A stretch of 64,000 nucleotides of DNA from a virus (taxonomy: Duplodnaviria > Heunggongvirae > Uroviricota > Caudoviricetes), in the IMG/VR virus record IMGVR_UViG_3300012269_000002, positions 82,407 to 146,406 of that record; one strand, 5' to 3'. The first letter of the stretch is position 1. Every line of letters starts with the position of its first letter. Positions 58,556 to 60,340 of this stretch are shown one piece after another. The translations under genes were made by a program, and so were the position numbers. The notes beneath the pieces are model-generated. The model was not told where the DNA came from, ran no database searches, and saw only the letters and a list, made by a program, of their open reading frames with translations.

Positions 58556-58807
58556 ATGAAAGATAGAGAAGAACTAGTCATAAATGTATGTGGCCTTAGT
58601 GCCAGTGGTAAGAGCACCATAATCCAAATGATTCAGGAAATGTTAGTTAAAGAGGGTTTTAATATTGATACTCGTTATAATGACGAACCAATACCCACCA
58701 CAAAGGGATTAATCGATAGAAAAGAATCAATTCGATTAATGAATAAAAAAATTACTATTAACGAGGTTCAGGCCATAAAAAATATAAGACAATATGAAAC
58801 ACATTAG
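58556..58807 (+). CDS. small P-loop protein (GLSASGKST)
   Basis: Walker A motif in an 83-aa ORF. Confidence 0.35.
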   Translation: MKDREELVINVCGLSASGKSTIIQMIQEMLVKEGFNIDTRYNDEPIPTTKGLIDRKESIRLMNKKITINEVQAIKNIRQYETH

Positions 58808-59243
58808 TTATCCAAAAACATTACAATTTAGAAACATCGTAGCAAATGTCAATAGAATGATTACATTCGTTGGTTTAGATGAAAATGGTGATGCAATTTA
58901 TAATGAAAATGTATCAAAACCAACAATAACATTTAAAGGTACGGTAAAACTTCATGGTTGTTTTAGTAAAAATACTGGGGTTATGTTAGTTAATGGTGAG
59001 GAAAAAAAAATATCTGAAATAACTAAGGGTGACGTGGTATTAACATATGACATTGAAAATAATAGAATAAATAGTGGTAGTGTAACAAACACATTTAAGT
59101 TCGACAATAATAAAAAATGGGTTGAATTAATTTTTGATGATAGAACGATAAAATGTACCGAAGACCATACATTTTTTACTCATAATAGGGGTTGGATTAT
59201 GGCTAAAGATTTGTTAATTACCGACAAATTTAAAACCCTATAA
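58794..59243 (+). CDS. RNA ligase 2 (Rnl2-like) N-terminal extein (ends ...TVKLHG) fused to a split-intein N piece (CFSKNTGVML..., 94 aa)
   Basis: KLHG followed by Cys and intein block A (CFSKNTGVMLVNGEEKKISEI) and block B (TEDHTFFT). The ORF stops after the IntN piece. Confidence 0.65.
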   Translation: MKHISYPKTLQFRNIVANVNRMITFVGLDENGDAIYNENVSKPTITFKGTVKLHGCFSKNTGVMLVNGEEKKISEITKGDVVLTYDIENNRINSGSVTNTFKFDNNKKWVELIFDDRTIKCTEDHTFFTHNRGWIMAKDLLITDKFKTL

Positions 59244-59362
59244 TTTGTATCATGAACACTTTATTAAATTTATTAATATTACTAAAAAAAATAAAATTGA
59301 TGTTACTGACGTTAATTTTTGGATACCTAAAAAAATGAAATTAATTTTAAATAAAAATAAAA

Positions 59363-60340
59363 ATGAAATTAAGGGAAATTAAAAAAATTGAGAATGAAAC
59401 ATCATATGATATAGAAGTTGAGGGTTTTCATAATTATTTTGCCAATGGGGTTTTAGTGCACAATTCTAACGCTGGTGTAAGTTATAATGATTCCGATGGT
59501 GTTTATACACAATCAAGAAATAACGCTTTTGGGTTTGACCAGGGTGAATCACACATGGGGTTTACTTTTCTGGTTAAATCAAAAGAACAATTATTTCTTA
59601 ATATTATAAATGCTGTTAAGGAAATATATAATGTAGATACATCTGAACATACAATTACCATATATGGTGAATGGGCTGGAAAGGGAATTCAAAAAAATGT
59701 GGGAATTTCAGAAATTGATAAGGCATTTTATATTTTCGGGTGTAAGATATCTAAACCATCGGACCCAGAGTTTACATCATATTGGGTCGATATTTCCGAT
59801 TTAACATTTCCAGAATCTAAAGATATTTGGAATATTCATGAATTTAAAACGTTTGATATTGATATTGACTTTGAAAACCCACACATAGCCCAGAATAAAA
59901 TTATAGAGCTTGTTAACGAGGTTGAAAATGAGTGTCCAGTGGCTAAACATTTTGGTTTTAGTGGAATTGGTGAAGGATTAGTTTTTGTTGCTGATTTTAT
60001 GAATAATAGATTATTGTTCAAAGCTAAGGGTGAAAAACACTGTGGTGTTTCAAAGGTTAAGACCCTAAGACCAGTTGATGAGGGTAAGGTTACCCTAGTT
60101 AATGAAGTAGCCGATAAGGTTACTCCAATCTGGAGACTTAAGCAAATGTTCAACGAAGCTACTAAGAATGGTACTGAAATAGAACGTAAGCATATTGGTA
60201 CTTACATCAAGATGGTAATCAAGGATGTATTGGATGAAGATTCAGACATCATCGTAGATGCTGGTCTAGAACCAAAGGATATTAGCGGTAAAGTTTCTGT
60301 CATTGCCAAGGAATACTTTTTTGAACAAGAAAAATTGTAA
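59363..60340 (+). CDS. split-intein C piece (34 aa, ...YDIEVEGFHNYFANGVLVHN) fused to the RNA ligase 2 (Rnl2-like) C-terminal extein
   Basis: Intein block F/G ends HN followed by Ser. The extein SNAGVSY ... YGEWAGKGIQKNV ... parallels T4 Rnl2 (KIHGTN ... FGEFAGPGIQKNV). Spliced, motif I reads KLHGSN. Confidence 0.65.
   Translation: MKLREIKKIENETSYDIEVEGFHNYFANGVLVHNSNAGVSYNDSDGVYTQSRNNAFGFDQGESHMGFTFLVKSKEQLFLNIINAVKEIYNVDTSEHTITIYGEWAGKGIQKNVGISEIDKAFYIFGCKISKPSDPEFTSYWVDISDLTFPESKDIWNIHEFKTFDIDIDFENPHIAQNKIIELVNEVENECPVAKHFGFSGIGEGLVFVADFMNNRLLFKAKGEKHCGVSKVKTLRPVDEGKVTLVNEVADKVTPIWRLKQMFNEATKNGTEIERKHIGTYIKMVIKDVLDEDSDIIVDAGLEPKDISGKVSVIAKEYFFEQEKL

Follow-up and report, generated by a model that had tools for sequence, protein, structure and literature searches.

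A probable split intein without an endonuclease gene in motif I of an Rnl2-like RNA ligase of a phage

Introduction

The stretch of DNA analyzed here (the window; 64,000 nucleotides (nt), positions 82,407 to 146,406 of the caudoviricete record IMGVR_UViG_3300012269_000002) contains an RNA ligase gene that is divided between two open reading frames (ORFs), with the break inside motif I of the active site. How might a complete ligase be obtained from two such genes? The locus very probably represents a split class-1 intein in motif I of an Rnl2-like ligase, splicing in trans, in a fractured gene from which the endonuclease gene was deleted.

Structure of the Locus

ORF 1 (58794-59243, + strand, 149 amino acids (aa)) encodes the N-extein and the N-terminal intein half, IntN, and ORF 2 (59363-60340, + strand, 325 aa) encodes the C-terminal half, IntC, and the C-extein. 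According to the ORF listing and the raw sequence, both are located on the same strand, in different frames, with a gap of 119 nt, exactly as given in the initial annotation, which had been made from the sequence alone. The N-extein (58794-58958, +), delimited by the ORF and by alignment with T4 Rnl2, in which motif I is KIHGTN, comprises ligase residues 1-55 up to motif I, K52-L-H-G55; the codon of Lys52, the predicted lysine accepting adenosine monophosphate, occupies 58947-58949. IntN (58959-59243 with the stop codon, +), recognized by Pfam Intein_splicing and TIGR01445, consists of 94 residues, starts with Cys1 and contains the block B motif T-E-D-H; its coding part is 58959-59240, and the TAA stop codon is at 59241-59243. 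The translation of ORF 1 passes from FKGTVKLHG into CFSKNTGVMLVNG, continues through CTEDHTFFTHNRGW and ends in KTL. The A/T-rich spacer of 119 nt (59244-59362, +) is followed by IntC (59363-59464, +), recognized by TIGR01443 and consisting of 34 residues, MKLREIKKIENETSYDIEVEGFHNYFANGVLVHN, which end in VLVHN with His33-Asn34. The C-extein (59465-60340, +), assigned to PF09414, begins with Ser+1 in SNAGVSYND and comprises ligase residues 57-346 with motifs III, IV and V, a predicted helical C-terminal domain and the stop codon. Cys1 is read from the sequence as TGT (58959-58961), His-Asn as CAC AAT (59459-59464) and Ser+1 as TCT (59465-59467). The locus of 1547 nt is identical in four further contigs from different samples, and the N-fragment protein is present on 17 contigs; the identical copies therefore exclude an artefact of assembly or sequencing.

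According to the proposed mechanism, the intein was inserted between Gly55 and Ser/Thr56, in motif I K-L-H-G/S-N of an ATP-dependent, Rnl2-like RNA ligase of a phage. Two polypeptides, the N-extein (55 aa) fused to IntN (94 aa) and IntC (34 aa) fused to the C-extein (291 aa), would be translated separately, probably from one transcript; IntN and IntC would associate into the HINT (Hedgehog/intein) fold and splice in trans by an N-S acyl shift by Cys1, attack of Ser+1 on the thioester, cyclization of Asn34 with release of the intein, and an O-N shift giving a peptide bond. The product would be a ligase of 346 aa with the adenylylation motif KLHGSN intact, and the predicted tryptic peptide across its junction is LHGSNAGVSYNDSDGVYTQSR. 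Since the intein follows the catalytic Lys-x-His at a distance of two residues, the lysine to be adenylylated and motifs III-V are located on separate fragments, and neither fragment alone would have a complete active site. After deletion of a Vsr-like (EDxHD) endonuclease gene, the split intein would be immobile, yet still required for ligase function.

Intein Halves

Both halves scored above the curated cut-offs of intein hidden Markov models. Residues 63-143 of the N-fragment matched Pfam Intein_splicing (PF14890; 39.4 bits, cut-off 35.8) and residues 56-129 matched TIGR01445 intein_Nterm (26.5 bits, cut-off 24.5); residues 15-35 of the C-fragment matched TIGR01443 intein_Cterm (30.3 bits, cut-off 15.6). 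IntN and IntC joined in silico gave 62.8 bits with Intein_splicing (E 4e-17) and matched the solved split inteins NrdJ-1 (8UBS, E 3.8e-11) and gp41-1 (6QAZ, E 3.7e-8); 6Y75, a cysteine-less split intein, was also among the best solved relatives. Profile matches to both halves and contiguous alignment of the exteins are the two findings on which the initial annotation had staked its canonical split intein of 94 + 34 aa beforehand, and both were obtained. The sizes also agree, as it had noted, with those of gp41-1-type (about 90-105 + 34-40 aa) and DnaE-type (102 + 36 aa) inteins.

All class-1 residues are present: Cys1, TxxH of block B (T-E-D-H), His33-Asn34 and Ser+1. Among 20 diverged homologues of the N-half (43-59% identity), C56 (Cys1), T122 and H125 do not vary, nor do several structural residues, and His-Asn and Ser+1 are invariant across all 16 distinct homologous C-halves. 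The same architecture of separate N and C genes, with their own stop and start, was found in 16 distinct homologous pairs; IntC has 34 aa, an MKL start and an HN/SN end in 13 of them, while in the remaining three it has 35 or 47 aa as picked, with the HN/SN end kept. The break is located at the canonical point of endonuclease insertion, between blocks B and F.

The ratio of nonsynonymous to synonymous substitution rates (dN/dS), estimated within the family and between the window and relatives, is about 0.2-0.3 for IntN, 0.1-0.55 for IntC and 0.1-0.4 for the exteins, and these values are probably overestimates, because synonymous sites approach saturation. That the intein halves are under purifying selection supports their being functional.

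Rnl2-Like RNA Ligase and Precision of the Insertion

The product spliced in silico (346 aa) belongs to PF09414 RNA_ligase (40.2 bits, cut-off 27). In 159 phage records, RNA ligase genes gave a single alignment covering at least 80% of this product, the closest match being that of Caulobacter phage Cr30 (39%). The ligase motifs are I (K52-L-H-G), III (YGEWAG), IV (GEGLVF) and V (FKAKGEKH). All 32 aligned homologues that lack the intein share K52, H54 and G55; K52, H54, E124, E225, K241 and K243 are family invariants aligning with the motifs of T4 Rnl2.

T4 Rnl2 (1S68, 2HVQ, 2HVR) is the nearest solved relative of the window ligase in both sequence and fold. It was the sole PDB match found by phmmer and by the family profile, which matched 2HVQ with E 4.4e-5 over positions 53-315, reaching into the C-terminal domain. 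For the AlphaFold model of the orthologue P0069 (73% identical; predicted local distance difference test score (pLDDT) 89.7), the best PDB matches were full-length T4 Rnl2, 2HVR/2HVQ (E 3e-9, 382-391 aligned columns), with template modelling scores of just 0.41-0.49, probably because of domain orientation; the N-terminal domain of T4 Rnl2 (1S68) and the trypanosome editing ligase REL1 were the next matches. T4 Rnl2 and the window ligase have in common motifs I, III, IV and V and probably a build of two domains, the C-terminal one helical; identity of T4 Rnl2 to the window ligase family in the structural alignment is about 16%, motif IIIa contains Asp in T4 Rnl2 (FYVFD) and Gly in the window ligase family (FYIFG), and T4 Rnl2, unlike the window ligase, has no intein. 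The equivalog TIGR02307 (RNA_lig_RNL2, NCBIfam) was missed with 31.2 bits at a cut-off of 197.15; therefore, the protein represents a distinct Rnl2-like subfamily of PF09414 and not an Rnl2 orthologue, so that the earlier term "Rnl2-family" is retained for the PF09414 membership and the nearest solved sequence and fold, and not for orthology.

Comparison with intein-less orthologues showed the insertion to be precise. The spliced coding sequence has 1041 nt, the length of the uninterrupted syntenic orthologue in the metagenomic locus L119, to which it is 74.9% (nt) and 73.2% (aa) identical without gaps. The junction is KLHG/TNAG in L119 and KLHG/SNAG in the window, and the empty-site allele reads AAATTACATGGA before and ACAAATGCT after the junction point. 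Three uninterrupted orthologues of 346 aa from a large protein database are 73-74% identical at 100% coverage, likewise without gaps. These gap-free alignments bear out the initial proposal that the intein sits in motif I and that splicing would rebuild KLHGSN. Residue +1 is Thr in all 32 aligned intein-less homologues and Ser in every intein-bearing allele.

The surroundings of the gene are similar as well. In the window, it is flanked by an 83-aa P-loop ORF with weak kinase-like matches (58556-58807, +) and by the gene of an ATP-dependent DNA ligase, PF01068 (60345-61760, +), and both also flank the ligase in L115 and L119. The gene order in L119 is close to that of the window: 154-aa ORF, 83-aa ORF, RNA ligase and ATP-dependent DNA ligase, apart from several additional small ORFs.

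Related Loci

Relatives (metagenomic loci designated by L-numbers) were obtained by a search with the N-fragment protein and then by an alignment-based scan of IMG/VR and JGI metagenomes, which was needed because a scan of IMG/VR with the C-fragment alone gave one weak locus; the metagenomic loci thus collected number about 177. The N-fragment search yielded about 26 clusters of proteins of about 150 aa with the KLHG/C junction, mostly of 44-60% identity. At least 20 diverged lineages from metagenomes have kept the split, and none of them has lost a catalytic residue.

In nearly all relatives with both halves, an ORF of about 275-281 aa lies between them; the gap between the halves in endonuclease-bearing relatives is 792-1220 nt, and the 3' end of the endonuclease ORF overlaps the IntC start by 20-29 nt in the four loci whose gene coordinates were read (L002, L006, L014, L115). 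The inter-half ORF passes the cut-off of DUF559, a Pfam domain of unknown function, and a profile of 15 such ORFs, which share the invariant motif EYNGDxYH, matched best the catalytic domain of I-Bth0305I (3R3P, E 0.005) and then Vsr. On these PDB matches, the product may be regarded as a putative Vsr-like (EDxHD) homing endonuclease.

The closest split relative is L115, in which the endonuclease gene (791-1624) is present and the spliced product is 69% identical to that of the window. Its gene order, 83-aa ORF, split ligase and ATP-dependent DNA ligase, is that of the window, except that a metallophosphoesterase gene separates the two ligase genes, a hint of a module for the repair of RNA or DNA ends. 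The endonuclease gene is also absent from L033 and L049, where the gaps are 345 nt and about 260 nt. L016 (2393-2982) is a decayed allele, in which the end of IntN runs into the last approximately 70 ligase residues, and IntC and most of the C-extein are deleted; it illustrates loss of function, in contrast to the intact locus of the window.

Further interruptions were found in ligase genes of the relatives. In L033 (5392-6400), the C-fragment is broken again near motif IV (GVKGIE/LTKH, followed by a stop), and a nearby minus-strand ORF contains the GIY-YIG-like motif NPFYGKTHT. A second break site, after SRENIITP, was detected in L116 (3501-4918), L006 (4342-5460) and the proteins P0027, P0029, P0032, P0038, P0042 and P0047. 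N-fragments at this site have about 120 aa and terminate in an additional, conserved peptide of about 37 aa (from SKLVEIEFEDG to the terminal IGETIVL), and about 180 nt further downstream the C-fragment starts, likewise with additional residues (IKNIREIKT/SDNAGFAFF); neither an endonuclease gene nor an intein motif is present there, and L006 has the same insert of about 46 aa at this site in contiguous form. Here the gene may have been fractured without an intein, the extra peptides serving for interaction. Mobile elements seem to insert into the ligase gene with particular frequency.

Among cultured phages in GenBank, no record matched the split N-fragment along 80% or more of its length. By tblastn of the N-fragment against GenBank phages, RNA ligases of mycobacteriophages (Omegavirus) were matched across the junction. 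In one of them, KashFlow gp155 (800 aa, PF09414), QKLHG is followed by the intein start CFPAK, the intein contains an in-frame LAGLIDADG domain, and its end, THNFFANHVLVHN, is followed by SS. RNA ligases of IPR021122 were listed in a 2025 preprint as a new intein host in actinobacteriophages. In Cellulophaga phage phi17:2, the nearest cultured relative by the DNA ligase (70% nt identity), no RNA ligase is annotated within about 4 kb on either side of that gene.

Spacer and Loss of the Endonuclease Gene

No endonuclease match was detected in window positions 55000-64000, and no Pfam match was obtained for the spacer ORF. The absence of an endonuclease, as initially annotated, is thus valid for the spacer, but it is apparently a derived state, nearly all relatives carrying the Vsr-like gene. 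In the neighbour-joining tree of IntN, constructed without bootstrap, endonuclease-less loci are scattered among endonuclease-bearing ones; therefore, repeated loss is favoured, and the lineage of the window apparently became endonuclease-free by loss.

A possible 3' remnant of the endonuclease gene is located at 59332-59362 (+), where the frame reads KMKLILNKNKNEIKGN up to a stop codon and shows similarity to the 3'-terminal part of the endonuclease gene in L006. This frame (59332-59382) extends 20 nt into IntC, and the overlap in L006 and L115 is equally long. When aligned to the L006 endonuclease 3' end, the low-complexity sequence on the right side of the spacer gave a score of 43, compared with 29.5 ± 4.6 for shuffled sequences, 2 of 300 of which reached it; at the protein level, the frame, also of low complexity, resembles endonuclease C-termini. 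The same region contains a 28-nt tandem duplication (59317-59372, +; repeat family D1, 79% identity) with a second copy of the IntC start, AAAAATGAAATTAA. An upstream ATG at 59335 opens an ORF of 15 codons, MKLILNKNKNEIKGN, which ends 20 nt inside the IntC gene and, speculatively, might compete with or be coupled to IntC translation.

Regulatory elements were sought in the spacer, as the initial annotation had proposed. No terminator was predicted in 59244-59362; a sigma-70 scan gave 20 promoter-like sites versus 15.6 ± 4.7, which is not above chance, with none in the spacer. Both ORFs start in an A-rich context with no Shine-Dalgarno sequence, which matches the genome, where this motif occurs at one of 69 genes.

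Alternative Explanations

The halves could also assemble without splicing, so that the intein would serve as a dimerization module of a two-subunit ligase, a role that interaction peptides have in the split NrdA of phage Aeh1, which lacks an intein. For phage enzymes fractured by endonucleases, non-covalent assembly is documented (PMC3045599), and in ligase relatives a second fracture occurs without an intein, both fragments carrying short additional peptides. However, dimerization alone would not demand that Cys1, TxxH, HN and Ser+1 be invariant across diverged lineages, and with the break inside motif I, the active site would probably be obstructed by some 128 additional residues, which makes this explanation improbable. 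Slightly lower still is the probability that the two ORFs are non-functional parts of a decaying relic, a ligase inactivated by invasion of the intein and endonuclease and by later deletion. The endonuclease gene is indeed absent, relative L016 is clearly decayed, and ligases of the T4 Rnl2 type are usually non-essential to phages; yet in the window both ORFs are intact, all catalytic residues of intein and ligase are kept, the extein can be aligned with an intact orthologue at 73% identity with no gap, comparisons of the window with relatives give dN/dS values well below 1, and the start context is normal.

The break could finally be an artefact, such as a sequencing frameshift within a contiguous mini-intein, or be bridged at the level of RNA or translation, by an RNA intron or by ribosomes bypassing the spacer; bypass was named by Dassa et al. 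(PMC2677866) as a formal alternative for fractured genes. The same sequence in four other contigs and the N-fragment on 17 speak against an artefact. Bridging is opposed by the stop and ATG architecture with an MKL-starting IntC of 34 aa, conserved in most relatives, by the different frames of the ORFs and by the unremarkable fold of the spacer RNA (z = -1.24). Comparison of 58500-60500 with Rfam (E up to 1) gave no match to any family, group I and II introns included, and a group I intron would not fit into 119 nt. This group of explanations is very improbable, the least likely of all those considered.

Several observations weigh against trans-splicing by a split intein that lost its endonuclease gene. 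In block F, the residue that is often Asp is Phe in the window IntC (EGFHNYF); the fast intein NrdJ-1 likewise lacks this Asp (THNFF). A single-sequence AlphaFold model of joined IntN and IntC was unusable (pLDDT 41), and the HINT fold consequently rests on sequence homology. The promoter scan covered promoters of the sigma-70 type, as distinct from Bacteroidota-type and phage-specific ones, and for this reason co-transcription is assumed. As for endonuclease loss, the whole spacer compared with L115 scored 31 versus 28.1 ± 3.4, a value reached by 107 of 500 shuffles; similarity of the left end of the spacer to the 5' regions of endonuclease loci was not significant either (53 of 300 shuffles), and the putative remnant signal is weak, about 30 nt of low complexity. 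Because of this low complexity and the non-significant comparisons of the left end and of the whole spacer, the assignment of 59332-59362 to a lost homing endonuclease gene is rated as suggestive only. The tree favouring repeated loss has no bootstrap, and the splicing and ligase activities attributed to the window and allelic inteins are deduced from their genes. A trans-splicing class-1 intein in a fractured ligase gene remains, with these points taken into account, the explanation that is considered very probable.

Other Elements of the Window

The window has a G+C content of 30%, nearly all its genes are located on the + strand, and a Shine-Dalgarno-like motif occurs at one of 69 gene starts. 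The only cultured relatives by DNA similarity are the Cellulophaga (Bacteroidota) phages phi17:2 and phi4:1, so the window fits a phage of a Bacteroidota host.

A second fractured gene was found at 3070-6968 (+). ORF 3070-3651 ends in NQGGK followed by CIRYNTKIKIKYNLDEIEKKLGFIPEELK and a stop codon, that is, in an unusually short IntN of about 29 aa after the Walker-A GGK; ORF 3713-4735 (340 aa) encodes a homologue of Vsr-like endonuclease (phmmer E 3e-12); ORF 4728-6968 (746 aa) starts with an IntC of about 124 aa, ending in DIVSHN before TTLT, with 24.3 bits to Pfam Intein_splicing. By the motifs GGK/TT, CQAC hook and FIAFDE, the host protein looks like an ATPase of the Rad50/SbcC/gp46 type. 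This intein is of a different type, and no further member of the IntN family of the window ligase was detected in the window. The initial annotation had announced two mechanistically different split inteins in the window: the other one does exist, with another split point and its endonuclease kept, but nothing in the present results points to a different chemistry.

The ORF at 1356-2273 (+; 305 aa) has sub-threshold matches to the Vsr, MTES_1575, PvuRts1I-like nuclease and MT-A70 domains and may encode another free-standing endonuclease.

Significance

A phage split intein from a fractured gene is of a kind known since 2009 (PMC2677866), and the locus does not change the understanding of inteins or RNA ligases. 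No split intein in this RNA ligase family turned up in the literature searches made, and an Rnl2-like RNA ligase appears to be a new split-intein host, which adds an RNA-repair enzyme to the hosts of naturally split inteins. One insertion site links a contiguous LAGLIDADG intein, Vsr-like fractured genes and an endonuclease-less split intein, and this series could be used for testing models of gene breaking and of the homing cycle.

Compact Cys1/Ser+1 split inteins related to gp41-1/NrdJ-1 are the fastest protein-ligation tools known. As a diverged pair (35% identity or less), the window halves are a reasonable candidate for an orthogonal tool. A bolder proposal, offered tentatively and with the balance slightly against it, is that motif I is one homing site preserving every stage of the split-intein life cycle and that the window pair would be a fast, orthogonal tool of the gp41-1/NrdJ-1 type. 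The stages would be the empty site KLHGTN; the contiguous LAGLIDADG intein of mycobacteriophages; the split intein with Vsr-like endonuclease, found in most relatives of marine and metagenomic origin; recurrent and independent loss of the endonuclease in the window, L033 and L049; and decay in L016.

Comparison with Known Systems

Fractured genes of phages, comprising split inteins with a free-standing homing endonuclease of the GIY-YIG or Vsr-like kind, were described by Dassa et al. in 2009 (PMC2677866), with gp41, IMPDH, DnaE, NrdA, NrdJ, DNA ligase and terminase as named hosts. The window shares with gp41-1, NrdJ-1 and IMPDH-1 (6QAZ, 8UBS; PMC2677866) the class-1 Cys1/Ser+1 chemistry expected from these residues, halves of about 90-105 + 34-40 aa, and the position of adjacent halves on one strand in phage nucleic-acid enzymes; these inteins are also the closest solved sequences. 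Adjacent same-strand halves broken within the intein are thus present in the window, while an endonuclease gene between them is absent, only 119 nt remaining; the relatives of the locus do have the free-standing Vsr-like endonuclease overlapping the IntC start, as in the fractured genes. The host, an Rnl2-like RNA ligase, is likewise a difference, being unnamed in PMC2677866. The fractured gene named "DNA ligase" by Dassa et al. was also considered as a possible member of the same family; with a Felix O1-like description and a 5'-3' exonuclease downstream, it is more probably a different gene.

The intein of KashFlow gp155 shares with that of the window the host family PF09414 and the insertion point, QKLHG/C at the start and VLVHN/S at the end, and its splicing blocks are homologous to the window halves (IntN 35% identity, E 1e-12; IntC 55%). 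It differs in being one polypeptide with LAGLIDADG, whereas the window intein is encoded by two genes, whose relatives use a free-standing endonuclease of another family.

The cyanobacterial DnaE inteins (Npu/Ssp) are, like the window intein, naturally split, class-1, endonuclease-less and of similar size (102 + 36 aa). The halves of the DnaE inteins are encoded far apart in the genome. Their similarity to the window intein is marginal (phmmer E about 0.2), and the +1 residue is Cys in DnaE and Ser in the window.

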